A stretch of 32,000 nucleotides of DNA from Methanothermobacter marburgensis str. Marburg (lineage in GTDB: Archaea > Methanobacteriota > Methanobacteria > Methanobacteriales > Methanothermobacteraceae). Shown here in pieces: positions 3,511 to 30,143 of the stretch. Under the pieces are notes generated by a model that worked only from the letters and a program-made list of their open reading frames with translations, made no database searches and had not been told where the DNA came from. Each line of letters begins with the position of its first letter. Position 1 is the first letter of the stretch. The stretch spans positions 990,001 to 1,022,000 of the forward strand of contig NC_014408.1 of assembly GCF_000145295.1 (NCBI RefSeq). Reading direction: 5' to 3'. A program made the position numbers and the translations under genes.

Positions 3511-3511
3511 C

Positions 3512-3643: not shown

Positions 3644-3644
3644 T

Positions 3645-3914: not shown

Positions 3915-3956
3915 TTTATCACTCCAGTAAATATGATGTTATAGGTATTGTAAGGC

Positions 3957-3966: not shown

Positions 3967-3982
3967 GATTTGGGGAGCACCA

Positions 3983-4066: not shown

Positions 4067-4072
4067 GAGGAT

Positions 4073-4876: not shown

Positions 4877-4877
4877 T

Positions 4878-6460: not shown

Positions 6461-6504
6461 ATTATGCCTCCCTGTTTTTTGAAGGCGAAAAAGGAGATGA
6501 GGGT

Positions 6505-7203: not shown

Positions 7204-7206
7204 TTT

Positions 7207-7953
<747 letters not shown>

Positions 7954-8016
7954 TTTTCTAACCTCTCTTTATTGATGGATAAATCTGGTAATCATGAGAC
8001 ATGTGATACAAATCAG

Positions 8017-8397
8017 TCAGTATTTATCTTTCTTGGAAGGTTTAATAAACTTTTGTGTTGCAGAGCGCACCGTTCCGGAGAGTCCCAGTATATGGAATAC
8101 CACCCTTGCCCCGCTGTGGTGGTGTGCAGCTGTGAGGGCAGCCATGACCTTTCCCTCGTAACCCCTCTGGCACTGAAGCACCCCCCTCATCCTTACTGCA
8201 TCCGGGAAACTACATCGCCAGAGTTTCATGAGCCATAAACGGAAATTTGATGTCTCACATTCGCCGTGGAGTTTGAGGCAGCTGTCCCATATGGCGGATA
8301 CGATTTCATCCCTTGAGAGCTCCCTCTCAGATATCAGTTCAAAGGCGATGTACCTCTTTGGGTTCCTGAGTGTGGGGGGGAGTATCTTCATTCTCAT
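8017..8397 (-). CDS. rnp2: RNase P protein component 2 (Pop5 homologue)
   Basis: 126 aa starting MRMKILPPTLRNPKRYIAFELISERELSRDEIVSAIWDSCLKLHGE... with a Pop5-type fold signature. It is adjacent to rnp3. Confidence 0.88.
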   Translation of the reverse strand: MRMKILPPTLRNPKRYIAFELISERELSRDEIVSAIWDSCLKLHGECETSNFRLWLMKLWRCSFPDAVRMRGVLQCQRGYEGKVMAALTAAHHHSGARVVFHILGLSGTVRSATQKFIKPSKKDKY

Positions 8398-8410
8398 GTC
8401 TTCACCGGGT

Positions 8411-8505
8411 TTCAGTCCTGTTCTTCGTCATCCACAAGCCTTTCCTTCCTATTCCAGTTCTTCCGTTGGCTGTGTTCAGTCCTCTTCCTCATCCTCCACA
8501 AGCCT
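8411..8505. repeat. 31-bp imperfect direct repeat duplicating the rnp3 3' end (offset 64 bp)
   Basis: Positions 8475-8505 hold the true last nine codons plus stop (RLVEDEEED*). Positions 8411-8441 hold a copy in the rnp3-rnp2 spacer that reads RLVDDEEQD*. Hand alignment gives 27/31 identity. Confidence 0.8.
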
Positions 8506-9201
8506 CACACCATCTGCAATCATAAGGGAGCGTTTGCGTGAGTATTCGATTATGGATGATGGTGTTGATGATAGGGCCCTCCCGGCCTCCCGGGTACTCA
8601 TCCCAAAGCACCCTGCCAGGTTCATGAGGTCACGGGGTGTGCGGAGGTCATATATTGATGATGCCCTGCTTGAGAGTAAGAGTGGAAAATCGAATTTTCT
8701 GTGGAGTTTAAGGATGTCCCTGAAGTACTCAAGAACCCTCGCCCTTACCTTGAGCCATGAGCCCATGATATCAGTGGTGACAAGTTCAACTGCAACCCTG
8801 TTCCTTGCAGCCTCCCTTGCGAGGACATGGTTCATGCCAGCGTCTCTCCTTGAGGAGTAGGGTGCAGAGAGGACATCCACCCGGGGGTTCTCACAGGCGG
8901 CGCGGTTCACCTTCAGGTCACCCCCTGAAACGTATACAACGTCGGCCTTCCTCCTGAAACGGTTAACCTTGCGCCTCATATCCTGGGGGTTCGAGGCGTT
9001 TATCATAACACCGGCTGCCACCTCAAGGCCACTGATTGCAGGGTTATCCCTCAGGAGTTCAATCTCTGGCTGGAGCCTGCTGTAGGTCTCATCGGAACAG
9101 ACCAGGACAGCCCCCTGGTAACCAAGACGGGAAGCCTCAGCAAGAAGTCTCAGACTGAAATCATGGTCACCTGCCTGAATATGGAAGTCAAAGAATTTCA
9201 T
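8476..9201 (-). CDS. rnp3: RNase P protein component 3 (Rpp30 homologue)
   Basis: MKFFDFHIQAGDHDFSLRLLAEASRLGYQGAVLV... has a TIM-barrel Rpp30 layout and is 241 aa from ATG 9201. The open frame continues upstream through three 18-codon repeat units to ATG 9363, which is the 295-aa track ORF. The native start is inferred to be 9201. Confidence 0.85.
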   Translation of the reverse strand: MKFFDFHIQAGDHDFSLRLLAEASRLGYQGAVLVCSDETYSRLQPEIELLRDNPAISGLEVAAGVMINASNPQDMRRKVNRFRRKADVVYVSGGDLKVNRAACENPRVDVLSAPYSSRRDAGMNHVLAREAARNRVAVELVTTDIMGSWLKVRARVLEYFRDILKLHRKFDFPLLLSSRASSIYDLRTPRDLMNLAGCFGMSTREAGRALSSTPSSIIEYSRKRSLMIADGVRLVEDEEED

Positions 9202-9455
9202 CTGCCTAGATGACCCACTTATTCGAGCATCCTCCTTGAAGTCAAAGAATTTCATCTGCCTAGATGACCCACTTATTCGAGCATCCTCCTTGAAGTCAAA
9301 GAATTTCATCTGCCTAGATGACCCACTTATTCGAGCATCCTCCTTGAAGTCAAAGAATTTCATCTGAACCCGCTGAAATCGGTTATTTGAGCATCCTAAT
9401 GGAAGTTAAAGAATTCATCTGGCTGGATGACTCAATTATTCAAGTAATTTCCTTA
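9184..9455. repeat. 54-bp tandem repeat array (3.4 identical units plus 2 decayed units) spanning the rnp3 start
   Basis: Identical units lie at 9184-9237, 9238-9291 and 9292-9345, with a partial unit at 9346-9366. Decayed units lie at 9346-9401 and 9402-9455. The last one contains the real stop of the upstream gene and is 43/54 identical to the consensus by hand alignment. Confidence 0.95.
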
Positions 9456-9843
9456 TATTCTCAGCTGCAACATCCCTCTTTGCAGGGTAGGCCTCCACCT
9501 TGATCTTGAGGTGTATTGCATCACCGTGCCTTACAGGTTTCCAGATCCCCTCAAGGGCCTCCTGTTTATCCAGTCGGATGAACAGGTTACCGTTTTCATC
9601 GAACCTGCCCTCGAGTTCATCCATTCTGCCCCTGAAGACTTCAATGAATTTTTCCATGAATTCTCTGAGAGCCCTTCTGCGGTCCACCCTGCCCCTTAAA
9701 ACTGTGATGGGGTTTCCATGGTAGCCCTCTGCCATTTCCCTTTCTGGTGCTGCACCGGGTATTATGTTCCTGAGGGCCTCAAGGACCTTTTCCTCGTCCT
9801 CGGTACCGTAAACCATTAGGCGGTAGGAGATGTTGTGTATCAT
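9436..9843 (-). CDS. predicted RNA-binding protein of the exosome superoperon (COG1325/DUF54-like)
   Basis: 135-aa ORF starting MIHNISYRLMVYGTEDEEKVLEALRNIIPG... Its size and its position between rpl15e and rnp3 match the uncharacterised predicted RNA-binding gene of the superoperon. The assignment rests on context and memory. Confidence 0.6.
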   Translation of the reverse strand: MIHNISYRLMVYGTEDEEKVLEALRNIIPGAAPEREMAEGYHGNPITVLRGRVDRRRALREFMEKFIEVFRGRMDELEGRFDENGNLFIRLDKQEALEGIWKPVRHGDAIHLKIKVEAYPAKRDVAAENIRKLLE

Positions 9844-9872
9844 TTTCCTCTAAAAATTAATTGAGTGGGGCT

Positions 9873-10418
9873 TTACCTTACCTTTTCAGCCCCTTTACCC
9901 CTGTTTCGGAGGCCCCTGTTCTTCTTACCTTCACTTGTGAGGCCCCTGAACACACGTCCCCTGTGCTGCTTTTCGCAGATCCAGTTTATTTTGGGGTCAT
10001 TCTTTATTGCTGGGTGGTTTGGATCAACGAGGATGACCTCATAGAACTTGTATTTTCCGTCCTCCCAGACCCAGTAGGAGTTGAGGACCTCCATGTTGGG
10101 GTATTTCCTTGCAACCCTTTCCTCTGCGATCCTCTTTATGCTCTTTGCAGTTGTGATTTTCTTAACACCCATTCTTTTGGGTCTTCTACCTGCCTTGAAC
10201 CTGGTTTTTCTCTGGCTACCGCGCCTCACACGTGTCCTCACGATTATGTATCCAGGTTTTGCCTTGTAACCAAGTGATCTTGCACGGTCTATTCTTGTTG
10301 GCCTTTCAATCCTTTTAATTACAGGGTCCCTTCTCCATTTTGGGGCCCTTTCCCACATAAGCTCCATTACATAGGAGTCCTTTGGATTTTTCCATGCGTC
10401 TTTAACATATTTGTACAT
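9873..10418 (-). CDS. rpl15e: 50S ribosomal protein L15e (eL15)
   Basis: 181 aa starting [57 protein letters not shown]..., canonical for L15e. SD GAGGTG lies upstream. It is the first gene of the superoperon. Confidence 0.96.
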
Positions 10419-10471
10419 TGTTTACACCTCTATTCTGTTCGGCTTTACGCCACATCCATGGGATCGTATCC

Positions 10472-10522
10472 CTTAAAAATAGCGGTTTATGTACTACTAC
10501 ATTTGATGTGGTCACTTAAAAA
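10472..10522 (-). promoter_or_regulatory. two TTTTTAAG TATA-like elements upstream of rpl15e (candidate superoperon promoter)
   Basis: The plus-strand motif cttaaaaa occurs at 10472-10479 and 10515-10522, about 55 and 98 nt upstream of the ATG. A 5-bp hairpin gggat-acg-atccc lies between the proximal box and the SD. Confidence 0.3.
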
Positions 10523-10771
10523 GTTTACTGTTGGTTCCATGAATAAATCTGTTTATGCACGATTTTAGTGTCATTAACCATTTGTGTATGTCTGAATTTA
10601 AGTCCATTAAGCTAGATTAAGCTGGAATTTGATATCCGGTAAACATGATGCAGATAATCCAAATCAGAAAATCATGATATCATCACATATCTTACCGGCT
10701 ATTGATTTTAGTATAATCTATATCTAAATGGAGGTAGATATTAATATAATATTTGTTTCGGGGGGTTGAAT

Positions 10772-12823
10772 GTGAAGTACGTCAAATTTTGCTCTTTGCT
10801 GGCTGTGGCTTTTTTGTTTGTTTTGTTTTTTTCTGGAACTTCAGCAGCTGTTTCACGGAATGAAAGAACTGGAAAAATTTATATGACCATCCAGGAGGCT
10901 ATAGACGATAGTGAAGTTCAGGATACTATAGTGGTGGATGCTGGAACTTATGAAGAAAACATAGTTATAAACAGAGAAAATTTAACTCTGAAAGCAAACG
11001 GAACAGTAATAATAGATGGATGGCGTGACAGAGAACCTGTAATAAATATAACGGCCAATGGGTCAAAAATAAACGGTTTTACGCTGATCAATGGTACTCA
11101 TGGAATATATTCATCTGCTGGCTGGTGTAACCTGACAAAGAACGTCATAAGACACAACGATATAGCAATCTGGCTAATGGACTCCGATAACAGCGTGATC
11201 CAGGAAAATGAAATAACTGATAATACTGGTGGAATAGTTCTAATATCATCAAACAGGAACATTATATCCAGAAATAATATAAGCAGTGAGGGATCCGGAA
11301 TTTCTCTTGAATCCTCAGCTGAAAACACAATTTCCAGTAACATTATAAGAAACTGTCTCAACGGAATCGAAGCTGGGTTCTCACCTTCAAATGTAATCAG
11401 AGAAAACAGGATAGAGGACATAACAGAGAATGCTATTTGCCTTCTGACCTCACTCAACAGTGTCTTAAGGAGTAACTCCATCATCAACGCATCTAGAGCC
11501 ATTAAAATTGGGGGAGGGGACAACTCAGTTGGCCATTTTATCCAGAACATAGATACCTCAAATACCATTGACGGTAAACCAGTCTATTATCTCACTGGAA
11601 TCTCCAACAGGGTCTACAATGGAATCCAAATGGGCTACCTTGCACTTGTGGGCTGCAGGAATGTAACCATAAAAAACGTTGCCCTCTCAAAATGTGGTAA
11701 TGGAATAATACTTGCAAATACAAACAGTTCAAGGATCGAAAACTGCAACATAAGCGATGATGACTATGGTATCTTCCTGTTGCAGTCCAGTAAAAACACC
11801 ATTCAGAGTAACAGGGTACACATGGCCAGATATGATGGTATTTTTATACACTATTCCAGTAACAACACCATTCTGGGAAATAAAATAAGCTTTAGCGGCA
11901 ATAGGGGCATACATGTCACGGGTTCATTCAATACAATCTATGGTAATCTTTTATTGAACAATTCAGTGGGATTACTTATATCAGCTTACAGCAAGGGCAA
12001 CAGGGTCTATGGAAACAGCTTCATAAACAATGGTATTCAGGCGGAAAATGAAGGTGGTTTAACCAATGTTTTCAATCTCACGCGGCCCACTGGAGGTAAC
12101 TACTGGAGCGACTACACCGGGGAGGATAAAAATGGGGATAACTTCGGGGACACTCCCTACACCTTTAGCGGTGGAGCCGACAGCCTTCCGCTCATCAGAG
12201 ATCCTCTGCAGAAACTTAAAGTGGTATCCATGGATCCGCCAAACGGTTCCATGAGCGTTTCAAGGACAAAAAGCCTTGTAATAACCTTCAGCTCCATTAT
12301 CATAGCCGGAACTAAATATTACAGTATAACAGTCAGAAAATCTACAGGTGCTCTAAAATCAATCATCCAGAGTATAAGCGGCAACAGGCTCATCATAACA
12401 CCCGTTGGAGGCTGGGATCCCGGTGTCAAGTTCACAGTCAGAATACCTGTGAATGCCATAGAAAATATTGCAGGAACCACCCTATCAGTGGACTTCACAT
12501 CAAATTTCACGTCTGCCATTGCAGTAACAGCCATTGATCCCAGAAGTGGTGCAACAGGTGTTTCAAGGACCAAAGTAATTGTCATAACATTCAGTAACAG
12601 CATACTTGCCGGCCCCAGCTACAGATCAATAACTGTAAAAACATCTGCCGGCCGGCTGAAGCCCATCAGTAAGAGAATAAGTGGCAACAGGCTCTACATA
12701 AAACCAGTTGGAAGCTGGAGTGCCCGTACAAGGTACATCATCACTGTTCCAAGGACTGCAGTTAAGACCAGCACAGGTAACATGATGGCAGTAGATTTCA
12801 AATCAACATTCACAACAAGATAA
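10772..12823 (+). CDS. secreted/surface protein: signal peptide, parallel beta-helix (PbH1/NosD-like) repeats and two C-terminal Ig-like (SbsA/Big_5-type) domains
   Basis: The N-terminus KYVKFCSLLAVAFLFVLFFSGTSAAVS is a signal/anchor. Residues ~100-440 carry many 22-25-aa repeats of type N.I.GN.I..N..GI.L..S..N.I. Two ~101-aa tandem domains follow. I prefer the GTG 10772 start (GGGGGG 6 nt upstream); the track start is TTG 10766. Confidence 0.75.
   Translation: MKYVKFCSLLAVAFLFVLFFSGTSAAVSRNERTGKIYMTIQEAIDDSEVQDTIVVDAGTYEENIVINRENLTLKANGTVIIDGWRDREPVINITANGSKINGFTLINGTHGIYSSAGWCNLTKNVIRHNDIAIWLMDSDNSVIQENEITDNTGGIVLISSNRNIISRNNISSEGSGISLESSAENTISSNIIRNCLNGIEAGFSPSNVIRENRIEDITENAICLLTSLNSVLRSNSIINASRAIKIGGGDNSVGHFIQNIDTSNTIDGKPVYYLTGISNRVYNGIQMGYLALVGCRNVTIKNVALSKCGNGIILANTNSSRIENCNISDDDYGIFLLQSSKNTIQSNRVHMARYDGIFIHYSSNNTILGNKISFSGNRGIHVTGSFNTIYGNLLLNNSVGLLISAYSKGNRVYGNSFINNGIQAENEGGLTNVFNLTRPTGGNYWSDYTGEDKNGDNFGDTPYTFSGGADSLPLIRDPLQKLKVVSMDPPNGSMSVSRTKSLVITFSSIIIAGTKYYSITVRKSTGALKSIIQSISGNRLIITPVGGWDPGVKFTVRIPVNAIENIAGTTLSVDFTSNFTSAIAVTAIDPRSGATGVSRTKVIVITFSNSILAGPSYRSITVKTSAGRLKPISKRISGNRLYIKPVGSWSARTRYIITVPRTAVKTSTGNMMAVDFKSTFTTR
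12215..12820 (+). repeat. intragenic tandem duplication of a ~303-nt Ig-like domain module
   Basis: 12215-12517 encodes LKVVSMDPPNGSMSVSRTKSLVITFSS...ISGNRLIITPVGGW...SVDFTSNFTS. 12518-12820 encodes IAVTAIDPRSGATGVSRTKVIVITFSN...ISGNRLYIKPVGSW...AVDFKSTFTT. The two are roughly 45% identical at the protein level by eye. Confidence 0.8.
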
Positions 12824-12835
12824 ATAAAAAAATAC

Positions 12836-12850
12836 TTCTTTTCTATTTTT
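12836..12850 (+). terminator. oligo-T tract after the surface-protein gene
   Basis: cttcttttctattttt begins 13 nt after the TAA, matching the archaeal oligo-T termination signal type. Confidence 0.4.
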
Positions 12851-12944
12851 AAATTTTAAGAATATTTATCTAATTTTTGCAAAAGGTGATTTTCAAGAGC
12901 TGATTAATAAAAAACTGAATACCTTAATTTAAAAAAGAATTTAA

Positions 12945-13268
12945 TCAGTCCCCAAGGACCTCATAAAGAATCCTCATTGCCTTCACAAAGGGTGGATTAC
13001 CTGATGTGAGGAGAACAACACGGAGAACGTCAACAATCTCATCCCTTGTAACCCCAAATTCATTTATGGCACTCTGTATCTGCTTTTTAACCGCACGGTC
13101 ATCTGAGTTTGCAGCTGTTATCCCGAGGGCTATGAGTTTCTGTGTCTTGTAGTCAAGAACCTTCCCTGTGTAGGCGGCCTCGTTGAGTTTAACAACTGCC
13201 TCGTAGATGTCAGGATAGTCCTCCTTCACATGGACCATGCCCTTTCCATAGAAAACATCCTCTTTCAT
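12945..13268 (-). CDS. carboxymuconolactone decarboxylase (AhpD-like) family protein
   Basis: 107 aa containing ...LDYKTQKLIALGITAANSDDRAVKKQIQSAINEFGVTRDEIVDVLRVVLLTSGNPPFVKAM..., the CMD-domain pattern. SD GGGAGGTG lies upstream. Confidence 0.7.
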   Translation of the reverse strand: MKEDVFYGKGMVHVKEDYPDIYEAVVKLNEAAYTGKVLDYKTQKLIALGITAANSDDRAVKKQIQSAINEFGVTRDEIVDVLRVVLLTSGNPPFVKAMRILYEVLGD

Positions 13269-13303
13269 ACCTTACACCTCCCGAATCTTATTATGTTCAG
13301 CTT

Positions 13304-13314
13304 GATATTTATAA
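13304..13314 (-). promoter_or_regulatory. TATA box (GTTATAAATATC) for the CMD-family gene
   Basis: The minus strand reads tagTTATAAATAtcaag about 40-45 nt upstream of ATG 13268, just after the oligo-T tract that follows the stomatin gene. Confidence 0.4.
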
Positions 13315-13322
13315 CTAACACC

Positions 13323-13338
13323 AGCTAAAAATAAAAGG
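13323..13338 (-). terminator. oligo-T tract after the NfeD-stomatin operon
   Basis: The minus strand reads ccttttatttttag starting 8 nt after the stomatin TGA (13346-13348). Confidence 0.4.
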
Positions 13339-13345
13339 TGATTAT

Positions 13346-14326
13346 TCACTGTTTTTCCTGAAATTCTGGGGATGCTGGTTTTTTCTCTGCTTCTGATGGC
13401 TCAGATTTTTTCGATGTTTTTTCAGATGCCCTTGAGGGGTCAGAGAGCATCTCTGAGATCCCTGCAATTGAACCCAGAATACCTGTGGCCTCCACAGGGA
13501 GAAGTATCTTTGTGGCCCTTCCATCGGCAACCTTCTCAAGGGCCTCAAGGTATTTGAGTGCTATTATATCATTCGTCGGGTCCCCCTCGTGCATTGCCCT
13601 GAAAACCGAGAGTATGGCCTTGGCCTGACCCTCTGCTATGGCTATCTCCCGGTACTTGTTGGCGTCTGCAACCTTCTTTATGGCCTCGGCCTTACCCTCT
13701 GCCTCAAGGATGGCTGCCTGTTTATCACCCTCAGCCCTCTTTATCTCTGACTGCTTGTAACCCTCTGCCTCGAGGATGGCCGCCCTCTTCATACGTTCGG
13801 CCTTCATCTGCTTTGACATGGCCTCAACTATGTCTCCGGGTGGTTCTATGCGCTGTATCTCCACACGGACAACCCTGGTACCCCACTTGTCTGTGGCCTC
13901 ATCTAGGACCTCGCGGAGCTGGGTGTTTATCATCTCCCTTGATGTGAGGGTCTGGTCCAGTTCAAGGTCCCCTATTATGTTCCTGAGGTTTGTCTGGGCC
14001 AGCTTGGTTATGGCCTGGTAGAAGTCAACCACGTTGTAGACCGCATTGAAGGGGTCAACCACCTCATAGAATATGACGCAGTCCACAACAACGACTGTGT
14101 TGTCCTTGGTTATGACCTCCTGTGGTGGTACATCAACCACCTGCTCCCTCATGTCAACCTTCTTTATGGCCTCTATGAACGGGATTATAACAACGAGGCC
14201 GCTTTCGACTGTCCTCTGATATTTACCGAGCCTTTCAACAACACCCTTCTCGTAGGGTCTGAGTATTTTCAGGCTCTTGAATGCCAGTACAAGGAGTACA
14301 AGTACAATTATTATTTCAAGAAGCAT
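13346..14326 (-). CDS. SPFH/band-7 family protein (stomatin/prohibitin homologue)
   Basis: 326 aa with an N-terminal TM ([16 protein letters not shown]), an SPFH core (...[29 protein letters not shown]...[18 protein letters not shown]...) and a coiled-coil AEAEG repeats region. Confidence 0.92.
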
Positions 14327-14329
14327 CTT

Positions 14330-14752
14330 TCATTCCTCCAGTTTTTCAACAACGAGTTTAACTCCCTCAATTGCCTTCACCTTCACCCTGTCACCCTCTT
14401 TAAGAGCCGCGTCTGACCTTGCCCTCCAGGTTTCACCGTCGACCCTCACAAGACCAGAGCTCTGGGGTGTGATTGCCTCTGTCACGGTTCCCTCCCTTCC
14501 TATGAGTCTATCTGCAACCGCCTTCTTTGATGGCTCACCTGTTATGCGCGCGGCGAATGGCCTTGAAATAGCAAGGAGGATAACTGAAACAACAATGAAT
14601 GTAACAAACTGTACCGTTGTATCGAATCCAAGGTATCCAAGTACCGCTGCTGCCAGTGCCCCGAAGGCGAACCAGAGAAGAAAGAATCCCGCGGTCAGCA
14701 TTTCGCCTATGAGGCATATGGCAGCTATTATCACCCATGACTCAGGTCCCAT
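14330..14752 (-). CDS. NfeD-family membrane protein (short form, C-terminal OB fold)
   Basis: 140 aa with three or so TM helices, then ...[50 protein letters not shown], the NfeD C-terminal signature. It ends 3 nt before the stomatin gene, the classic NfeD-stomatin pair. Confidence 0.88.
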
Positions 14753-14977
14753 GATCCCACCACCAGTTAATAATCTACTCCATGTTTATATTATTTACTG
14801 TTACCCAGTGTTATTCAACTATTAAATATTGTCACAGTCATGGATATAATCATTTATAATATAATATTTTGAAATTTATTATTACGTTTATCGGATTAAT
14901 TGAAATTTTAATAATAATTTTTTATAAAAAAGTATTTATAGTGGTGTCCCATAATAAATTCAACGGAGGTGGAAATC

Positions 14978-15379
14978 GTGAGTGGCGAAGATGAACTGAA
15001 ATTTCTTGTGCTGGGTTACAGGATCAGTGAAGGTAAAACCCAGAGGGAACTTGCAGATGAACTCGGTGCCCATGTGGACATTGTAATAGCAATGGAGAAC
15101 GGCACCTACAGGCACCCCACAAGGAGGCTTCTTAACAGAATCCATGAACTCACCGGGGAATATGAGGTGAAAAGAAGGTACTTCATAAACATTGGAAAGG
15201 GTTACAGGTTGAGGGAAAGGCTTGGACCCCAGTTCAGGTACTTTATCCGTGGCCTTGATAAAATGAAGTACATAAGCATGGAAGAACTTGAGAAGATGCC
15301 AGAAGCCGAATGTTACAGCACCATAGGCACTGTGGACCTGGACGCATTTGAGGTTCTAAGGGCAGGAAAGATGTCCTGA
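14978..15379 (+). CDS. XRE-type helix-turn-helix protein with an uncharacterised C-terminal domain
   Basis: The HTH is ...YRISEGKTQRELADELGAHVDIVIAMENG... I prefer GTG 14978 (GGAGGTGG SD 5 nt upstream); the track start is GTG 14969. Confidence 0.7.
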   Translation: MSGEDELKFLVLGYRISEGKTQRELADELGAHVDIVIAMENGTYRHPTRRLLNRIHELTGEYEVKRRYFINIGKGYRLRERLGPQFRYFIRGLDKMKYISMEELEKMPEAECYSTIGTVDLDAFEVLRAGKMS

Positions 15380-15505
15380 AAATCCACCTATTCTTTAATA
15401 TTTACCATTTTGATCCCTGAAACAGAAAAAGTGTCCTGAAACCCCTCAAATTATTTATTTTTGGATTAGTCAACATTATTAAGGTTCGGATTCATATACC
15501 TAAAC

Positions 15506-16618
15506 ATGAGGTTCATAACACTCATTCTGAAGAATCCGTTCAGAAGCCGTGCAAGGAGTCTCCTTGCAATAACAGGTATCGCGATTGGAATTGCAACCAT
15601 TGTAACCCTTGGAGTGATAACCGAGGGCCTGAAGGCATCAACAGAGAACACCCTCAAGGCGGGTGGCGCCGACTTCACGATTGTGGAGTCCAATGTCTCG
15701 GACATGTTCTTCAGCAAGATAGATGAGGAATACGTGGATAAGGTGCGGAACGTGAGCGGGGTCGAGGACGCTGTTGGAATACTCATGGCTGTACAGCCCC
15801 TTGACGACAACCCCTACTTTGTACTGATAGGGATAGATCCTGCCAAGATAAACATGAGCCAGATAAAGATAACTGATGGCAGGACCCTGACGGATCCAGA
15901 TGCAGATGAGGTCATAATCGGTAAGGTGGCCTCAGAGAACCATGGCAAGGGCGTTGGTGATACAATAAAGATAAAGAACCGTGAGTACCGTATCGTCGGG
16001 ATATTTGAATCCGGTGACATGCAGCAGGACGGAGGGGCCTTTATTTCACTCAAAAAACTCCAGAAAATAGAGGAGAAGGAGGGTAAGGTCACCATGATCT
16101 ACGTTAAAATGACCAGAAATTCAAGGGTGGAGGACGTCACAGACCGCATCGAGAAACGTTACAATGACCTCACAACCATAGCCTCACTTGAGGACCTCCA
16201 GAGCGTTGACCAGGGCCTGCAGACCATAGACACCGCAACCTGGGCCATATCACTCCTCGCCATAATAATAGGTGGAATTGGAGTTATAAACACCATGATA
16301 ATGTCTGTATTTGAGAGAACAAGGGAGATCGGAGTTCTGAAGGCTGTCGGCTGGAGGGACCGCAGGATTCTCGTTATGATACTCGGGGAATCTGTGGTTC
16401 TGACTGTGATCGCAGGTATTGTGGGTTCAGTGCTTGGTGTTGCAGCCATACAGGTGCTCCTTGAGCTTGGAATGAGGGGATTCATAGAGCCAGTATACAG
16501 CCCTGAGATCTTCATGAGGGCCTTTGCAGTCGCCCTCAGCGTGGGTGTTCTCGGCGGACTGTACCCTGCCTACCGGGCATCAAGGCTCGCCCCCACAGAG
16601 GCACTGAGGTACGAGTAG
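15506..16618 (+). CDS. ABC transporter permease, FtsX/MacB-type
   Basis: 370 aa with an N-terminal TM (LLAITGIAIGIATIVTLGVI), a large extracytoplasmic domain and three C-terminal TMs. The FtsX pattern is ...ERTREIGVLKAVGWRDRRILVMILGES... Confidence 0.88.
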   Translation: MRFITLILKNPFRSRARSLLAITGIAIGIATIVTLGVITEGLKASTENTLKAGGADFTIVESNVSDMFFSKIDEEYVDKVRNVSGVEDAVGILMAVQPLDDNPYFVLIGIDPAKINMSQIKITDGRTLTDPDADEVIIGKVASENHGKGVGDTIKIKNREYRIVGIFESGDMQQDGGAFISLKKLQKIEEKEGKVTMIYVKMTRNSRVEDVTDRIEKRYNDLTTIASLEDLQSVDQGLQTIDTATWAISLLAIIIGGIGVINTMIMSVFERTREIGVLKAVGWRDRRILVMILGESVVLTVIAGIVGSVLGVAAIQVLLELGMRGFIEPVYSPEIFMRAFAVALSVGVLGGLYPAYRASRLAPTEALRYE

Positions 16619-16626
16619 GTGGTTCC

Positions 16627-17280
16627 ATGAAGGCCATAGAGGTGAGAAACCTTAAGAAGAGCTTTGATGGGGGTAAGATAAGGGCCCTTAATGGTGTTGA
16701 CCTTGAAGTTGAAATGGGTGAGTTCATCTCAATCATGGGGCCATCAGGTTCAGGTAAATCCACCCTCCTCAACATGATAGGCGCCCTTGATGTCCCTGAC
16801 TCAGGCACCATCAAGGTCGCTGGAAGGGATCTTTCAGAGGAGAGGGACCTGAGTCGTTTAAGGGCCGAGGAAATAGGCTTCGTGTTCCAGCTGCATAACC
16901 TCATACCCAGCCTCACCGCCCTTGAAAACGTTGAGATACCCATGTTTGCTGTGAAGCACGTTAACATGGAGGAGCGTGCAATGGAGCTCCTTGAACAGGT
17001 AGGCCTCGGTGATAAGGCTGACCGGAGGCCCACGGAACTCTCTGGTGGTGAACGCCAGAGGGTTGCAATTGCCAGGGCCCTGGCCAATAACCCGTCAATA
17101 ATCCTTGCAGATGAACCTACGGGGGCTCTTGACTCAAAGACAAGCAGAAATATACTCCAGATGCTTCAGAAGCTTCAGGATGAGGAGGGGGTTACCCTTG
17201 TTGTTGTCACCCATGAGCCCCATGTGGCTGAGATGGCCTCAAGAACCATAAGGATACTTGATGGTGTGATCGTGGATTGA
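16627..17280 (+). CDS. ABC transporter ATP-binding protein (MacB/LolD-like)
   Basis: Walker A GPSGSGKST, Q-loop, signature LSGGERQRVAIARAL, Walker B IILADEPTGALD and an H-loop VVTHE are all present. SD GGTGG lies upstream. Confidence 0.95.
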   Translation: MKAIEVRNLKKSFDGGKIRALNGVDLEVEMGEFISIMGPSGSGKSTLLNMIGALDVPDSGTIKVAGRDLSEERDLSRLRAEEIGFVFQLHNLIPSLTALENVEIPMFAVKHVNMEERAMELLEQVGLGDKADRRPTELSGGERQRVAIARALANNPSIILADEPTGALDSKTSRNILQMLQKLQDEEGVTLVVVTHEPHVAEMASRTIRILDGVIVD

Positions 17281-17611
17281 GGTAAGCGTAGCCAGGGCTT
17301 CATAGGCTCTGGAACTTATAAGAAGGTGACTTTAGCTGGACAACACATCAGCTACTGAAATGTAATTTCAGTGCCCTGTGCAGTAGGCCATTTAAGGTAT
17401 TAAAAGCACTTATTAGTTTTTTAGAGTTTAATGGTCATGAAATCATTTCAAAATCCCTGAATCCCACTTCAAGGTTTTCCTGGTTGAATGCCAGACAAAA
17501 GAATCGTCGATTTATCCTCGGATCACGGGTCAAAGCTCTCCATGCTATCACATGATCATGACATCATATGCAACCCAAATTTGATTAATAAGTTCCAACA
17601 TATTATGAACC

Positions 17612-18184
17612 ATGACTGAAAAACTGACTGTTGCCTGGTGTATCACCGGGGCCGGGGAGAAACTTACTGAAACCTACGAAATAATGAAGGACATCAAAAA
17701 GATCTATGGGGATCATATCAAAATCGACGTCTTTATATCCAAGGCAGGTGACCAGGTTGTCAAGTACTATGGCCTCTACAGGGACCTTGAGACCAGCTTT
17801 GACAGAAAATGGGTTGAAATAAACGCCAATTCACCCTTCCTTGCAGGCCAGGTCCAGCTTGGTAAGTATGACTTCATACTTGTGGCTCCCTGCACCTCCA
17901 ACAGCACAGCCAAGATATCCCTGAGGATAGGGGATACCCTTGTTACAAATGCCGTTATAATGGCCCAGAAGGCCTCTGTCCCTGTCTACATCATGCCATC
18001 GGATTACAGTGAGGGGAAGGTTATCACGACACTTCCAAACGGTAAGAAACTGGAACTCAAAATAACCAGGGAGGACGTTGAACACGTAAAGAGGATATCA
18101 AGGATGGACAAAACAGAGGTTTTCAGTGACCCTGACAAAATCTACAAGATCTTTGAGGAGTGGACCTACCCCAAGGATCAATGA
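17612..18184 (+). CDS. afpA: flavoprotein of the archaeoflavoprotein AfpA type (Dfp/CoaC-like fold)
   Basis: 190 aa containing ...VAWCITGAGEKL...FLAGQVQLGKYDFILVAPCTSNSTAKISLRIGDTLVTNAVIMAQKASVPVYIMP..., the flavoprotein (PF02441-type) pattern. The AfpA assignment is from memory. Confidence 0.65.
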   Translation: MTEKLTVAWCITGAGEKLTETYEIMKDIKKIYGDHIKIDVFISKAGDQVVKYYGLYRDLETSFDRKWVEINANSPFLAGQVQLGKYDFILVAPCTSNSTAKISLRIGDTLVTNAVIMAQKASVPVYIMPSDYSEGKVITTLPNGKKLELKITREDVEHVKRISRMDKTEVFSDPDKIYKIFEEWTYPKDQ

Positions 18185-19092: not shown

Positions 19093-19226
19093 GAAAAGAC
19101 CTCCTTTCAATATATTTTTATTATGTGTAACTTAAATCATTAAAGGAGGAGAAATGTATTTAAGGCAGAAGACATTTATCATTAATAATCATTATTATTT
19201 TTTTCTGGCACTTATGAGGTGTAACC

Positions 19227-19775
19227 ATGAAAGAGAAAAGTAAGGAGATTGGTTCCCGTGTAAGGGAACTGAGGGAACTTTCAGAAATCACAGAAGATGA
19301 AATGGCCAGTTACCTGAACATTGACGTGGAAACCTACCGCCGCTATGAGACCGGAGAGGAGGACATCCCGGCAAGCATACTCTTTGAGATAGCCCACAAG
19401 ATGGGCGTTGACATGGGACTTCTGCTCACAGGTGAGGAGACAAGGATGCACATCTTCACCGTCACCCGCAAGGGCAAGGGGGTGGAGGTTGAGAGGAGAA
19501 AACAGTACCGCTACGAGAACCTGGCAGAGAAGTTCATACACAAGAAGGCCGAACCATTCATAGTCACAGTGGAGCCCCGGGACGGAAAACCAAAGACCAA
19601 CAGCCACCCAGGGCAGGAATTCAACTACGTCCTTGAGGGGCGCATAAGGTTCTACATACACGACAATGAGATAATACTGAATGAGGGAGACTCCATATTC
19701 TTTGACTCATCATATGAACATGCCATGGAGGCCCTGGACGGTAAAAGGGCCAGATTCCTTGCAATAATAATGTAG
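19227..19775 (+). CDS. XRE-family HTH plus cupin-domain transcriptional regulator
   Basis: The N-terminal HTH is [41 protein letters not shown]. The C-terminal cupin is [18 protein letters not shown]...[21 protein letters not shown] lies upstream. Confidence 0.85.
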
Positions 19776-19785
19776 AGGTGTGCCA

Positions 19786-21465
19786 ATGACTGCTCTCATA
19801 CATGAATTCGTTAACCGTGTTGAATTTGACTCCTACGAGGATTTCCGTGATAATTTCCAGATAAAGATACCTGATAACTTCAACTTTGCATACGACGTGG
19901 TTGACCGCTACGCAGAGATTGAACCCGACAAGACAGCCATCGTCTGGTGCAACGACAGTGGAGATGAAAGGAGGATAACCTTCGGTGAACTCAGGGAACT
20001 CTCAGACAGGGCAGCCAGTTTCTTCACCAGGGAGGGTATAGAGAAGGGTGACACTGTCATGCTGACCCTAAAGGCAAGGTACGACTTCTGGTACTCCCTC
20101 CTGGGACTTCACAAGATAGGCGCCATTGCAATACCAGCCACACACATGCTCAAGGAGAAGGACATCATCTACCGTATAAGGGAAGCCGATATAAGGATGG
20201 TTGTCTGCATAGCAGAGGACGGAGTGCCTGATGTATTTGACAGTGCCATTGATGAACTTGGGGCAGACGTTAAAAGGGTCATCGTCGGTGACCTGGAAAA
20301 GGAAGGATGGATAAACCTCAGGAAGGAACTCAGTGATATCCAGGAGGACTTCCAGGCCCCTGAAGACCGCCCCGGTGGAAAGGATACGCTGCTTGTGTAC
20401 TTCTCATCAGGCACAACCGGTATGCCCAAGATGATAGAGCACGACCACACCTACCCCCTCGGCCACATAATAACCGCAAAGTACTGGCAGAATGTCAGAG
20501 AGAACGGCCTCCACTACACGGTCGCAGACACAGGCTGGGCCAAGGCCATGTGGGGGCAGATCTATGGACAGTGGATAGCTGGAAGCGCCGTATTTGTCTA
20601 CGATTATGATCGCTTTGACCCCGAGAAAATGCTTGAGAAGCTTGAAAAGTATGACATAACAACCTTCTGCGCCCCCCCAACCATATACAGGTTCCTCATA
20701 AAGGAGGACCTCTCACGCTACGACCTATCAGGCATAGAATACGCGGTGACAGCGGGGGAACCCCTCAACCCTGAGGTCTTTGAGAGGTTCAAGGAGCACA
20801 CAGGACTTGAGCTCATGGAGGGCTTCGGTCAGACAGAGTGCGTTGTGTGCATAGCAAACTTCCCCTGGATGGAACCAAAGCCCGGTTCGATGGGAAAACC
20901 ATCACCGGGCTACCAGGTTGAACTCGTGGACAGGAACGGTGAACCCGTGGACGTGGGTGAAGAAGGTGAGATAGTCATAAAAACAGAGGATGGTAAACCG
21001 ATAGGACTCTTCAACGGCTACTACAGGAACCCGGAGAAGACATCAGAGGTATGGTACGGCGGTTACTACCACACAGGGGACACAGCCTGGATGGACGAGG
21101 ACGGGTACATGTGGTTCGTTGGGAGAACCGATGACATAATAAAGAGTTCAGGTTACCGTATAGGGCCCTTTGAGGTTGAAAGCGCCATCATATCCCACCC
21201 ATCGGTCCTTGAATGCGCAGTTACCGGCTACCCTGACCCCATAAGGGGACAGGTTGTCAAGGCAACCGTGGTGCTTGCAAAGGGATATGAACCATCAGAG
21301 GAACTGAAGAAGGAGATACAGGACCATGTGAAAAGGGTGACCGCACCCTACAAGTACCCCAGGATAGTTGAATTTGTTGATGAACTGCCCAAGACCATAA
21401 GCGGTAAGATAAGGCGTGTTGAGATCAGACAGCATGACCTTGAGGGAGACGGTGAAAACCAATGA
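19786..21465 (+). CDS. AMP-forming acyl-CoA synthetase, medium-chain (ACSM/Macs-like) type
   Basis: N-terminal [14 protein letters not shown]...PDKTAIVW, plus motifs [38 protein letters not shown] and [13 protein letters not shown] 19786 follows GAGGTG; the track start is GTG 19780. The stop overlaps the vorC start (ATGA). Confidence 0.88.
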
Positions 21466-21701
21466 AGAAGGCCTACCCGGTAATAAACAGGGTCGAATGC
21501 AAGGCATGTGAGCGGTGTATAATCGCATGCCCCAGGAAAGTGCTTTACATGAGCAATAAGATCAACGAGAGGGGTTACCACTACGTTGAGTACCGTGGCG
21601 AGGGATGCAACGGCTGCGGGAACTGCTACTACACCTGCCCCGAGATCAACGCAATAGAGGTCCACATAGAGAGGTGTGAAGATGGCGACACAGATGGTTA
21701 A
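21462..21701 (+). CDS. vorC: 2-oxoacid:ferredoxin oxidoreductase delta subunit (2x[4Fe-4S] ferredoxin-like), VOR-type
   Basis: 79 aa with two cluster motifs, [12 protein letters not shown] and [12 protein letters not shown]. The symbol is from memory of the three-gene Methanothermobacter vor operon. Confidence 0.8.
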
Positions 21702-22740
21702 GGGTAACACCGCCGTGATAATAGGGGCCATGTATGCTGGCTGTGACTGCTACTTCGGATACCCGATAACACCAGCAAGTGAGATACTCCACGAGGCCTC
21801 AAGGTACTTCCCCCTGGTGGGGAGGAAGTTTGTGCAGGCAGAATCAGAGGAGGCAGCCATAAATATGGTCTACGGTGCAGCTGCAGCCGGCCACAGGGTC
21901 ATGACAGCATCCTCAGGGCCAGGTATGAGCCTCAAACAGGAGGGAATATCCTTCCTTGCAGGTGCTGAGCTTCCTGCGGTCATCGTGGATGTCATGAGGG
22001 CAGGTCCGGGACTCGGGAACATCGGGCCGGAGCAGGCAGACTACAACCAGCTGGTGAAGGGCGGTGGACATGGAAACTACAGGAATATCGTCCTTGCACC
22101 CAACAGTGTACAGGAGATGTGCGACCTCACAATGGATGCCTTTGAACTGGCAGACAAATACAGGAACCCAGTTATAATACTTGCAGACGCCGTCCTGGGG
22201 CAGATGGCAGAACCCCTCCGCTTCCCTGAAAGGGCCGTGGAGCACAGGCCGGACACATCCTGGGCTGTATGCGGCAGCAGGGAAACCATGAAGAACCTCG
22301 TAACCTCCATATTCCTTGACTTCGATGAACTCGAGGAGTTCAACTTCTACCTCCAGGAAAAATATGCGGCGGTGGAGGAGAATGAGGTGAGATACGAGGA
22401 ATACATGGTTGAGGATGCTGAAATTGTACTCGTGGCGTATGGTATAAGCAGCAGGGTTGCGAAGAGCGCGGTTGACACAGCAAGGGCAGATGGCATAAAA
22501 GTGGGACTTCTGAGGCCCATAACGCTATTCCCATTCCCATCAGAAAGAATCAGGGAACTTGCAGAGGGTGGCTGCACCTTCATATCGGTTGAGATGAGCA
22601 GCGGCCAGATGAGGGAAGATATAAAGATGGCCTCAGGCTGCAGGGATGTTGAACTCGTAAACAGGATGGGTGGAAACCTCATAGAACTGAGGGACATCCT
22701 CAGGAAAATCAGAGAAATCGCGGGGGAATCCAATGACTAA
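21682..22740 (+). CDS. vorB: 2-oxoacid:ferredoxin oxidoreductase alpha subunit, VOR-type
   Basis: [39 protein letters not shown]... is the typical alpha N-terminus. ATG 21682 lies 5 nt after GAGAGGTG; the track start is GTG 21676. It overlaps vorC by 20 nt and vorA by 8 nt. Confidence 0.88.
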
Positions 22741-24169
22741 AAAGGTGATCAGGAAACCAGATTCACTCCACGAGGTATTCGAGAGGAAGGGTGGAAGCGC
22801 CCCCACAGCCACACACTACTGTGCAGGCTGCGGCCATGGAATACTCCACAAGCTCATAGGTGAGGCCATTGATGAACTGGGTATACAGGAGCGTTCAGTA
22901 ATGATAAGCCCGGTTGGCTGTGCGGTTTTCGCCTACTACTACTTTGACTGCGGAAACGTCCAGGTGGCCCATGGAAGGGCCCCTGCAGTGGGGACAGGGA
23001 TATCACGTGCATAGGACACCCCCGTGGTCTTACTCTACCAGGGTGACGGGGACCTTGCATCCATCGGCCTCAATGAGACGATACAGGCCGCAAACCGTGG
23101 TGAGAAAATGGCGGTCTTCTTTGTCAACAACACCGTCTACGGTATGACAGGCGGTCAGATGGCGCCAACAACCCTCATAGGTGAAGTGACAGTCACATGT
23201 CCCGGTGGGAGGGACCCCCGATATGCAGGTTACCCGCTACATATGTGTGAACTCCTCGACAACCTCCAGGCCCCGGTTTTCATAGAGAGGGTCTCCCTTG
23301 CAGACCCAAAAAGCATAAGGAAGGCCAAAAGAGCTGTTAAAAGAGCCCTTGAAATCCAGAGGGATGGGAAGGGCTACGCATTTGTTGAGGTACTATCACC
23401 ATGCCCCACAAACCTCAGGCAGGACGCCGAGGGTGCTGAAAGGTTCCTGAAGGAGGAAATGGAGAGGGAATTCCCCGTGAAGAACTTCAGGGACCGCTCA
23501 TCCGAGACAGAACCCCTCATAAGATCAGAGAGTGACTTCTCAAGGGAGAGCCTGGACCGCATATTCCAGATAAAGGAGGACTCGGTGCCAGACCCTGTGG
23601 ATGACCCTGAATTCCGGGAGGTAAGGGTTAAGATTGCAGGTTTCGGTGGCCAGGGAGTCCTTAGCATGGGACTGACACTGGCACAGGCAGCCTGCAGTGA
23701 GGGAAGACACACATCATGGTACCCTGCCTATGGGCCCGAACAGAGGGGTGGTACATCAAGCTGCGGAGTAGTTATATCAGGTGAAAGGGTGGGCTCACCG
23801 GCGGTTGACACGCCAGATGTCCTCGTGGCCTTCAACCAGCCATCCCTAGATGAATTTGCAGGTGATGTCAGGGAGGGTGGTATTGTCCTCTACGACACTG
23901 CCACCGCAGATTTCAGTAAAAAAGAGAATCTCAGGGCCATAGGTGTGCCAGCCCTTGAAATAGCAAAGGAACACGGTACAGGGAGAGCTGCCAACACCGC
24001 CATGCTGGGTGTCATGATGGCCCTTGGAATCACAGGCCTCGATGAGGAATCCTTCAGGGATGCCATAAGGTTCACCTTCTCTGGTAAGGATAAGATAATA
24101 GATATCAACCTTAAAATACTCGAGGCAGGAGCAGACTGGGCCAGGAAGAACCTTGAGGGGGAATTTTAA
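22733..24169 (+). pseudogene. vorA: 2-oxoacid:ferredoxin oxidoreductase beta (TPP-binding)/gamma fusion subunit interrupted by one in-frame TAG
   Basis: Track ORFs 22733..23014 and 23024..24169 share one frame. The read-through gives ...HYCAGCGHG...[37 protein letters not shown]...[16 protein letters not shown]..., a linker, then the gamma domain [10 protein letters not shown]... That is 478 codons in total. Whether it is a pseudogene, a split gene, recoded or a base-call error is undecided. Confidence 0.8.
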
Positions 24170-25485
24170 TGTCATACCATGGATCAGCCAGGAAATTCCT
24201 TGAATCAGCCTCCATAGATGTGGGGGACACCGTTAGGGTGGAGAAACCCGATGTGACCTATGAGGGCATGGTGCTGGACCGTGCAGATGATGCAGATGAC
24301 AGGCACATCGTCCTGAAACTCAAAAACGGATACAACATTGGAGTTGAAATCAGCGACGCAAAAATAGAACTCATTGAGAGGGGTTCAGAGCCAAAAATAG
24401 AGCTACCCCCGGTTGATGTGAGTGAGGACCCCAACCTGCCAGATGTATCCATAATATCAACGGGCGGTACCGTTGCATCAATAATAGACTACCGTACAGG
24501 TGCAGTGCACCCGGCCTTCACCGCAGACGACCTCCTCCGGGCCAACCCCGAACTCCTGGACATGGCAAACATAAGGGGTAAGGCCGTCCTGAACATCCTC
24601 AGTGAGAACATGAAACCCGAATACTGGGTTGAAACCGCAAGGGCCGTATACCGGGAGATAGATGCCGGTGCAGATGGTGTTGTTGTTGCACATGGAACCG
24701 ACACCATGCACTACACATCCGCCGCCCTCAGCTTCATGCTCAAAACTCCAGTCCCTGTGGTCCTCACAGGCGCCCAGAGGAGTTCAGACAGGCCATCATC
24801 GGATGCAAGCCTCAACATACAGTGCTCGGTGAGGGCCGCCACCTCTGATATAGCTGAGGTCACGGTCTGCATGCATGCAACCATGGATGACCTCACCTGC
24901 CACCTCCACAGGGGCGTGAAGGTGAGGAAGATGCACACCTCAAGGAGGGACACCTTCAGGAGCATAAACGCCCTCCCCCTCGCAGAGGTAACACCAGGGG
25001 ACATCAAAATACTTGACGCTGACTACAGGAAGAGGGGTTCAGCTGAACTGGAACTCCATGACAGAGTTGAGGAGAGGGTTGCCCTCATAAAGAGTTACCC
25101 TGGTATGTCTCCTGATATCATAGAATGGCACCTGGAGAGGGGCTACAAGGGACTGGTCATGGAGGGTACAGGTCTCGGGCACTGCCCCGACACACTGATA
25201 CCGGTACTCAGGGAGGCCCATGATATGGGGGTCCCTGTTGCCATGACATCCCAGTGCCTAAACGGAAGGGTCAACATGAACGTCTACAGCACAGGAAGGA
25301 GGCTCCTCCAGGCGGGTGTCATACCCTGCGCAGATATGCTCCCGGAGGTCGCCTACGTCAAGATGTGCTGGGTCCTGGGACAGACATCTGAACCAGGAAG
25401 GGTGCGTGAAATGATGATGGATAACATTGCAGGGGAAATCAAGGATAGGACATCAATAGCATACTTCAGGGGGTTGATCAGATGA
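24169..25485 (+). CDS. gatD: Glu-tRNA(Gln) amidotransferase subunit D
   Basis: 438 aa with an asparaginase-like core: ISTGGTVAS...[43 protein letters not shown]. The ATG overlaps the vorA TAA (TAATG). Confidence 0.93.
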
Positions 25486-27341
25486 ACTGGGATGAGATAG
25501 GACTCAAAATGGGCCTCGAGATACACCAGCAGCTTGATACAGAGAGCAAACTCTTCTGCCCTTGCAGAACAGAACTTATCGATTCAGAACCTGACCACGA
25601 CATAGTGAGGAACCTCAGGCCAACCCAGAGCGAACTCGGGAAATTTGACAGGGCAGCCTTTGAGGAGGCCATGAGGAAGCTCCACTTCCACTACGAGAAC
25701 TACGATGATGGAACATGCCTGGTTGAGGCAGATGAGGAGCCACCCCACCCCCTCAACAGGGAGGCCCTTGAACTTGCAGTTACAATCGCACTCCTCCTCA
25801 ACATGAGGGTTGTGGATGAATTCCACACCATGAGGAAGCAGGTCATCGATGGCAGCAACACCGGGGGCTTCCAGAGGACGGGCCTTGTTGCAACCGACGG
25901 CCACCTTGAAACACCACAGGGGACTGTTAAAATAGAGAACCTCTGCCTTGAGGAGGACGCCGCAAGGAGGATCAGGGAGACAGAGGATGGTGTTGTATTC
26001 AGACTGGACCGCCTGGGCATACCCCTCGTTGAGATAACCACAGACCCATCCATCAGTGACCCCCAGCAGCTCAGGGATGTCGCATACCAGATAGGCCAGG
26101 TGCTCAGGAGCACCCGTGTTAAGAGGGGCCTCGGGACCATAAGGCAGGACCTCAACATATCCATACGTGAGGGGGCCAGGGTCGAGGTGAAGGGTGTCCA
26201 GGACCTTGACCTCATCCCGGAGATAGTTGAGAGGGAGGTCATGAGGCAGCTGAAACTGGTTGAGATAAGAAACACCCTCAGGAAGAGGGGAGCCTCGGTT
26301 GATGGGGATCTGGTTGATGTCTCAGAGGTCTTCAGGGATACGGCCTCCAGGATAATATCCTCGGCAGAGTCAGTACTCGCTGTTAAACTGATGGGCTTCC
26401 ATGGACTGATAGGAACTGAAATACAGCCCGGAAGACGTTTAGGTACAGAGATGGCTGACTATGCAAAGAAGAGGGGCGTTAAGGGGATATTCCACACCGA
26501 TGAACTCCCTGCCTACGGTATAACCCCCGAGGAGGTTAAAGCCCTCAGGGATGCTGTTGATGCCTCAGAGGATGATGCGGTGGTCCTGGTGGCCCATGAT
26601 AGGGAGACAGCAGAGAATGCCCTCAGGGAGGTCACTAAACGTGCCAGGATGGCCATTGATGGCGTTCCAGAGGAGACCCGGAAGGCCCTCCCCGACGGAA
26701 ACACCCAGTACCTCAGGCCACTTCCAACCTCAAGCAGGATGTACCTTGAAACAGACATACCGCTCTTCAGCATAGAAGAGGAATTCATCGAGTGGATCAG
26801 AAAGAACCTCCCTGAACTTCCATCAGAAAAGAGGGAGAGGCTCATAGAAGAGTACGGCCTCAGTGATGACCTGGCATCCCAGCTCGTTAAGAGGAACCTT
26901 GTTGAGGAATTCGAGGCCCTCGCAGAGTTCAGGGTTGATGTGACCGTGGTAGCATCACTCCTCGCCTACACCCTCAGGGAACTTGGAAGGGAGGGCCATG
27001 ATATGGACAGTATCGGCATTGACGAACTCAGAGACGTCATCAGACTCCTTGAGGAGGGTAAGGTGTCAAAGGATGCTCTCAGGGACATAGTTGCCTGCAT
27101 GGCCGATGATGGTGTAACAGCAGGTGAGGCTGCAGAGAAACTGGACCTCCTGCTCCTTACAGAGGATGAGGTTGAGGCTGTGATAGATGAGATCATTGAG
27201 CTTAACCATGAAATGATCCAGGAGAGGGGTATGGGTGCAATGGGACCCCTGATGGGTCAGGCCATGGGTAGGCTGCGTGGTAGAGCCGATGGTAAGATTG
27301 TAAACAGGATACTGAACTCAAAAATCCGGGAAAGACTCTAG
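25482..27341 (+). CDS. gatE: Glu-tRNA(Gln) amidotransferase subunit E
   Basis: 619 aa starting [26 protein letters not shown]..., with ...[10 protein letters not shown]... and a GatB/E kinase-like core plus a YqeY-like tail. The ATG overlaps the gatD TGA (ATGA). Confidence 0.93.
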
Positions 27342-27524
27342 AAACCTCATTTTACATTTTTAGTTCACAAAAATATATTACCTTTTTCAATGCAAACTTA
27401 AATCCAGCTTAGTCCCCTTAAACAACCTCATAATCACAATATACCATTAATTTTTTTAATGTAGATAGGTCATTTACTTAAATCTTTATCTCAATCAAAA
27501 ACCAAGATAAAACCTGAAGGTGGT

Positions 27525-29553: not shown

Positions 29554-29582
29554 ATTTTCAGAATCAGACAGGGAGAATGTTT

Positions 29583-30143
29583 ATGATACTCATCATCAAT
29601 AATCACGGCCAGTACAACCACAGAATACACAGGACACTCCGGTATCTCCAGATACCATCCAGTCTCGTGCCCAACACAACACCGCTGGATGAGATCATCT
29701 CAATGGAACCAGATGGCCTCATACTCGGTGGCGGCCCATCACTTGAGATGGCAGGTAACTGTGTTGAGTACATCCAGAAACTCGATATTCCGATACTGGG
29801 TATCTGCCTGGGCCACCAGCTCATAGCCATGGCCTACGGTGGGGAGGTTGCAACCGCCGAGGCAGAGAGCTACGCCCAGATAGAACTGGAGATACTGGAC
29901 GAGGATGACATCTTCAGGGGCCTCGGCCCCAGGATGAGCGTATGGGCCTCCCACAAGGATGAGGTTAAGAGGCTCCCCGAGGACTTCAATGTTCTTGCAA
30001 CCTCAAGCATATGTGAGGTGGAGGCCATGAAACACCATGAAAGGCCAGTATACGGTATACAGTTCCACCCTGAGGTACACCATACACAGGATGGTCACCG
30101 GGTCTTCGAAAACTTCCATGAGGTCTGTGAAAACCTCCAATAG
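29583..30143 (+). CDS. guaAA: GMP synthase [glutamine-hydrolysing] subunit A (class I glutamine amidotransferase)
   Basis: [22 protein letters not shown]...[10 protein letters not shown]...IQFHPEV carries the catalytic Cys-His-Glu triad context. ATG 29583 lies 6 nt after GGGAGA; the track start is ATG 29577. Confidence 0.92.

Follow-up and report, generated by a model that had tools for sequence, protein, structure and literature searches.

The in-frame TAG that interrupts vorA in the 2010 genome record of Methanothermobacter marburgensis str. Marburg (CP001710 / NC_014408.1) belongs to a cluster of six substitutions within 19 nt, and these substitutions are private to that record: an intact allele of the gene exists in the same strain. 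A consensus error is the most likely explanation; less likely, the subculture that was sequenced had a complex mutation of its own. We infer that the cause lies in sequencing or assembly, rather than in a real mutation of the sequenced culture. The window referred to below is the whole 32,000-nt stretch analyzed, that is, positions 990,001 to 1,022,000 of NC_014408.1. Its vorCBA-gatD locus comprises the following features:

21462..21701, + strand: vorC, delta subunit of the 2x[4Fe-4S] ferredoxin type, 79 aa, with Pfam Fer4 families; exactly ADL58684.1 (VorC)
21682..22740, + strand: vorB, alpha-type subunit, 352 aa from the ATG at 21682, with PF01855 and PF17147
22733..24169, + strand: full-length vorA, 478 codons; except in the patch, its sequence is identical to that of the intact gene in the re-sequenced strain
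22733..23014, + strand: N-terminal vorA piece of the 2010 record, 93 aa (vorA1 / MTBMA_c10920 / ADL58686.1), listed in the supplement of Kaster et al. (2011) and terminating with TAG
23012..23014, + strand: in-frame TAG, codon 94 of vorA, in the ORF counted from the ATG at 22733
23012..23030, + strand: patch of 19 nt with six differences from independent Marburg sequence (2010 record/independent sequence: 23012 T/G, 23018-23021 ACCC/GATG, 23030 T/A)
23024..24169, + strand: distal vorA ORF, 381 aa from the GTG at 23024 (MTBMA_c10930 / ADL58687.1), with GDGD, the remaining TPP domain and the gamma (PF01558) domain
24169..25485, + strand: gatD, whose ATG overlaps the vorA TAA (TAATG)

A previous, sequence-only reading of the window had placed the TAG in frame at codon 94 of vorA and the vorA stop across the gatD start, and the window sequence bears out both (TAA 24167-24169, ATG 24169-24171). 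The same reading counted 381 more codons after the TAG; the frame actually holds 384 sense codons (23015-24166), and the figure of 381 applies to the ORF beginning at GTG 23024. The 93-aa and 381-aa products are 100% identical to ADL58686.1 and ADL58687.1, respectively, both from M. marburgensis str. Marburg. The 93-aa piece contains C30-x2-C33 and C63 and ends in ...GTGISRA, and the GDGD motif is coded ten codons 3' of the TAG, at 23042-23053 (VorA residues 104-107). Upstream, the mechanical ORF of vorB starts at a GTG (21676), and the identical 352-aa VorB is also encoded on independent Logan contigs.

Taken as a single protein, VorA has the TPP-binding PP domain (PF02775, E = 1.6e-18, residues 69-220), within which the TAG position falls, and a fused gamma (POR) domain (PF01558, E = 1.4e-45, residues 305-467). 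Its operon partners, VorB (PF01855/PF17147) and VorC (Fer4), both lie upstream. The domain order is that of an ordinary archaeal VorA such as M. thermautotrophicus O26801 (477 aa), and the gene order vorC-vorB-vorA is common to strain KEPCO-1, to an independent contig from SRR22315765 and to the window. Identity with the ordinary VorA of Methanothermobacter is 88-99% within the genus; the 2010 record departs from that protein only by the TAG and by T96, P97 and L100, where the ordinary protein has D, A and I. VorA also aligns with the OFOR beta chains 8ys5_C and 5b48_B, and in these solved beta subunits the TAG site corresponds to the residue N of a loop 'A-N-P-x', just ahead of the GDGD strand.

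Using the exact VorB protein as an anchor, we retrieved a Logan assembly contig (SRR22315765_130, 8,280 bp) that aligns without gaps to window 19190-27469 and differs from it at exactly six positions, all inside 23012-23030. Around the place where the 2010 record has the 19-nt sequence TAGGACACCCCCGTGGTCT, the contig reads GCA GAG GAC GAT GCC GTG GTC ATA, which leaves vorA intact, with a product of 478 aa. From codon 94, residues *-D-T-P-V-V-L of the 2010 record are thus replaced by E-D-D-A-V-V-I. The same 478-aa protein is deposited for M. marburgensis as WBF09261.1 / WP_269879166.1, on a genome sequence of 1,634,705 bp. Casini et al. (iScience 26:108016, 2023; PMC10579436) assembled the genome of strain Marburg de novo from PacBio data, at exactly 1,634,705 bp, with material taken directly from a DSMZ stock 'without excessive subcultivation'. 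Over the whole genome they count no more than 68 single-nucleotide differences and 30 indel bases relative to NC_014408.1, and 25 old genes could not be mapped onto the new annotation (PMC10579436). By our own comparison, the patch would account for six of these 68 differences; vorA is not discussed in the main text of that article (PMC10579436). GatD is identical in both Marburg genome records (ADL58688.1, WBF09262.1).

Elsewhere in the window, other independent contigs, from SRR22315766, SRR22315767 and ENA biogas metagenomes, show zero differences over positions 2009-9213 and 9240-17664 (~15.7 kb). Altogether, ~24 kb of the window is matched exactly in independent sequence, save for the 19-nt patch. 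Since about one difference would be expected over the ~24 kb compared, six within 19 nt stand out as an isolated anomaly. The re-sequenced genome and the independent assemblies of the same genotype have one 478-aa gene in place of two, and the stop, present only in the 2010 record, is missing from both SRR22315765 and WBF09261.1, contrary to what would be seen for a split gene or a nonsense pseudogene of the strain. The DSMZ-held strain thus has an intact, ordinary vorA, apparently transcribed if the contigs derive from RNA-seq, and the split annotation ADL58686 / ADL58687 is probably wrong for it. With vorA intact in independent data, there is no need for the argument, raised in the sequence-only reading, that translational coupling to gatD would select for keeping ribosomes on distal vorA.

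The Logan contigs from SRR22315765, SRR22315766 and SRR22315767 (window 19190-27469, 15452-17388 and 2009-9213) are short and begin and end intergenically, about 37-54 nt ahead of the first ATG and 100-130 nt past the last stop. They may therefore be transcript assemblies, perhaps from the RNA-seq series of the Casini study. A single contig links seven genes, those of the XRE-cupin regulator and an acyl-CoA synthetase together with vorCBA and gatDE, a sign that transcription may read through all of them.

Comparison with relatives leads to the same allele as the independent Marburg sequence. We compared codon 94 across 82 loci. Genomes of Methanobacteriales and Methanosarcinales supplied 80 orthologues, to which KEPCO-1 and the independent contig of strain Marburg were added. 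A sense codon is found in every one, GAA/GAG (E) in 70, CAG (Q) in nine and CTT (L) in three; the previous reading had proposed such an orthologue alignment to see the ancestral codon. Its statement that the affected position is variable holds weakly, given the Q and L codons; E nevertheless occupies 70 of the 82 loci. The downstream residues D-T-P-V-V-L of the 2010 record occur at none of the 82 loci, Methanothermobacter relatives having E-D-D-A-V-V-I at the site, and every relative has an unsplit gene. In some Methanobacterium matches vorA seemed ~700 bp longer, but only because tblastn segments had been joined; the ORF ends normally there.

KEPCO-1, the nearest other strain, is 97.5% identical to the window over 7.4 kb, and within 22862-23403 it differs from it only at the six patch positions. 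The independent Marburg sequence agrees with KEPCO-1 at all six of these positions and with a Kamchatka MAG (L001) at five of the six. Further lesions in vorA, which the previous reading would have taken as a sign of a pseudogene, are not observed outside 23012-23030 in comparison with the intact allele. One difference in this region is genuine. Compared with KEPCO-1, the window has a 1-nt indel at 25469, near the gatD 3' end, so that GatD measures 438 aa instead of 435 aa and gatD overlaps gatE in the sequence ATGA. The same indel is present in the independent Marburg contig and is thus a real difference between strains.

The split of vorA was already published. Kaster et al. (Archaea 2011:973848; PMC3087415) list in their supplement MTBMA_c10920 (93 aa, vorA1) and MTBMA_c10930 (381 aa) as counterparts of MTH705 (477 aa), class vorA1/vorA2 as a putative gene-splitting event, exactly at this locus, and state both that sequencing errors may underlie some of the annotated splits and that function is not necessarily abolished by splits. 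A search by locus tag for proteomic evidence led to no article other than theirs. Their article blames splits generically on single-base indels, whereas here we observe a nonsense codon within a patch of six substitutions, and this patch is missing from the later sequence of the strain. The published event is in effect superseded by that later sequencing. Swiss-Prot entry P80907.2 is exactly the read-through product of the window with Glu at position 94, and its curators appear to have taken the stop as erroneous. Although the stop was turned into Glu, the entry keeps T96, P97 and L100 of the 2010 record (window 23018-23032). In WBF09261.1 and all Methanothermobacter relatives, residues 96, 97 and 100 are D, A and I, and a comparison of these sequences suggests that P80907.2 is probably wrong at the three residues.

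We consider it probable that the six-substitution patch is a local consensus or editing error of the 2010 hybrid 454/Sanger record, and that the real vorA reads GAG GAC GAT GCC GTG GTC ATA from codon 94 and encodes an ordinary 478-aa VorA. With such an intact gene, neither read-through, nor reinitiation, nor gene fission would be called for. Several observations favor an error: the tight clustering of the differences against an otherwise perfect background; the authors' own caveat on split genes (PMC3087415); the 30 indel-base discrepancies of the old record and the 25 old genes left unmapped in the new annotation; the apparent correction of the stop to Glu by Swiss-Prot; and the agreement of the independent sequence with KEPCO-1 at all six positions, together with the sense codon in 82 of 82 loci. 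We also count in its support that vorA has no other defect. Other facts speak against it. The 2010 assembly is described as deep and of high quality (32x 454 plus 7.4x Sanger, minimum PHRED 45; PMC3087415), and the patch consists of six substitutions with no indel, while the usual 454 errors are homopolymer indels. In addition, one laboratory's DSMZ-derived culture is the source of the PacBio genome and, provided that they belong to the same study, of the Logan runs, so that the Marburg laboratory lineage sequenced in 2010 may really have carried the patch. Our predecessor had listed a base-call error among its explanations: the TAG is indeed absent from independent Marburg sequence, but a single miscall is too simple for six bases in 19 nt. 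More broadly, its pair of 'base-call error' and 'very recent lesion' brackets the evidence, in that the TAG and its five neighbors occur only in the 2010 record.

Alternatively, the patch may reflect a genuine complex (multi-nucleotide) mutation confined to the subculture from which the 2010 sequence was obtained; vorA would there be a fresh null allele and a very young pseudogene. We regard this as possible, though clearly less probable than an error in the record. Branched-chain acids are assimilated through VOR, and another route to valine exists. The mutation would have arisen while the culture was passaged for decades in the laboratory on H2/CO2 mineral medium, a condition under which an anabolic VOR is dispensable, and the anabolic role of the enzyme is stated by Kaster et al. 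(PMC3087415). The high coverage and quality stated for the 2010 assembly are in keeping with a real change, as are the preserved frame with substitutions only, the use for re-sequencing of a DSMZ stock that is a different culture lineage, and the lack of any further lesion, which a very recent event predicts. On the other side, for one natural event to put six substitutions into 19 nt and none into the ~24 kb around would be extreme, and the window offers no templating donor, direct or inverted. Tersteegen and colleagues, in 1997 and in the same laboratory, reportedly purified an active VOR that included VorA from strain Marburg, which also argues against a null allele. Even a patch truly present in the Marburg laboratory lineage would be no more than a private loss-of-function allele of a gene dispensable on mineral medium.

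A template for the patch was sought in two ways. Allowing up to three mismatches, the window holds no second copy, and no convincing inverted or direct partner near the patch, as expected from gene conversion or a quasi-palindrome template switch, was found within the window. A 7-mer (ACCCCCG) located ~200 nt downstream was rejected as a donor, its sharing being at chance level. We likewise rejected a partial complementarity to the GDGD codons, which is at chance level and accounts for only two of the four central changes. In JGI metagenome contigs, neither the patch nor its flanks with the patch masked had any match.

A functional split, also envisaged in the previous reading, would require that the TAG be real and that the 93-aa and 381-aa fragments, the second produced by termination-reinitiation at GTG 23024, join non-covalently at the shared [4Fe-4S]/TPP site. 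Such an enzyme is structurally not absurd, as the break falls in the loop just ahead of the GDGD strand, and Kaster et al. noted that splits need not destroy function (PMC3087415). The GTG lies 9 nt past the TAG with a weak AGGA 7 nt upstream of it; however, the same GTG and GAGGA are present in the intact allele, so that nothing there is specific to a split. The break would also cut the PF02775 domain (residues 69-220), none of the 82 comparison loci is split or has a stop at codon 94, the same strain has an unsplit gene, and nothing indicates that the distal piece is translated. We therefore hold a working split enzyme to be very unlikely. Equally improbable, in our view, is that the 2010 Marburg lineage carried the patch and still made active VOR, either from two VorA fragments by way of GTG 23024 or by low-level read-through. 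If true, it would provide a natural TPP domain that tolerates a break just ahead of the GDG strand.

The least credible possibility is a programmed or efficient local read-through of UAG yielding a full-length 52-kDa VorA. The frame is open on either side of the TAG, the distal part is intact, and E, Q and L are tolerated at the orthologous position. Nonetheless, a recoded stop should be conserved in orthologues, and this one is found in none of the 82 loci and is missing from independent sequence of the same strain; such non-conservation effectively refutes read-through. No stimulatory RNA structure was detected, the 120 nt 3' of the TAG folding no better than shuffled sequences (z = -0.33), and no Rfam family matches 21000-25000. 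The window contains no tRNA gene that could act as a suppressor. TAG is furthermore an ordinary terminator in this window: it ends the ABC permease (15506-16618), XRE-cupin (19227-19775) and gatE (25482-27341) genes, the ORF at 29577-30143, previously called guaAA, and both pieces of the NAS-like gene. This excludes a global reassignment of TAG, and we agree with the previous reading on this point. Pyrrolysine UAG codons in the methylamine methyltransferases of Methanosarcinales offer an apparent parallel, since they too are in-frame UAGs in methanogen genes with an open distal frame. They are, however, conserved across orthologues and require the pylTSBCD genes, whereas the vorA TAG is unconserved, occurs in one record only and sits among genes that TAG terminates normally. 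Methanobacteriales are not known to have a Pyl system.

The description made from the window alone is thus partly supported: right in proposing an error or a very recent lesion, it finds no support for read-through, a functional split or a coupling constraint. The chief value of the vorA TAG is one of caution. It should not be tallied as a case of archaeal stop-codon recoding, nor does it provide evidence of metabolic decay in M. marburgensis, a model methanogen.

The vorA stop had also been paired with a frameshift in a NAS-like gene as a second lesion of an accessory metabolic gene. The coordinates of the latter are as follows:

231-1033, - strand: NAS-like (PF03059) gene, split into ORFs 536-1033 (165 aa) and 231-596 (121 aa)

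This pairing is misleading, as the NAS split recurs in many independent assemblies and the vorA TAG in none. The 165-aa NAS fragment, with the second NAS ORF behind it, is found in many independent MAGs, genomes and metagenome contigs that are ~98.9% identical to the window, and the NAS split is real and shared, unlike the vorA TAG. An identical 165-aa product turns up in the index of about 150 collection blocks; in other close strains (L090, L092, L095), NAS is intact, at 265 aa.

Contigs from biogas-fermenter metagenomes (ENA PRJEB21266; L084, L085, L087, L088) are 100% identical to the window over up to 8.4 kb (9240-17664). On this sequence identity, the Marburg genotype, or one indistinguishable from it over 9240-17664, is present in those biogas reactors.

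A tandem repeat in the window overlaps a protein-coding gene:

9184-9441: 54-nt (18-codon) tandem repeat, 4.8 copies, 87% matches, overlapping the 5' end of an RNase P p30-like gene (8476-9363, - strand)

The RNase P p30-like products of relatives measure 245-277 aa, against 295 aa for the mechanical ORF in the window, and the copy number of the repeat appears to vary between strains.
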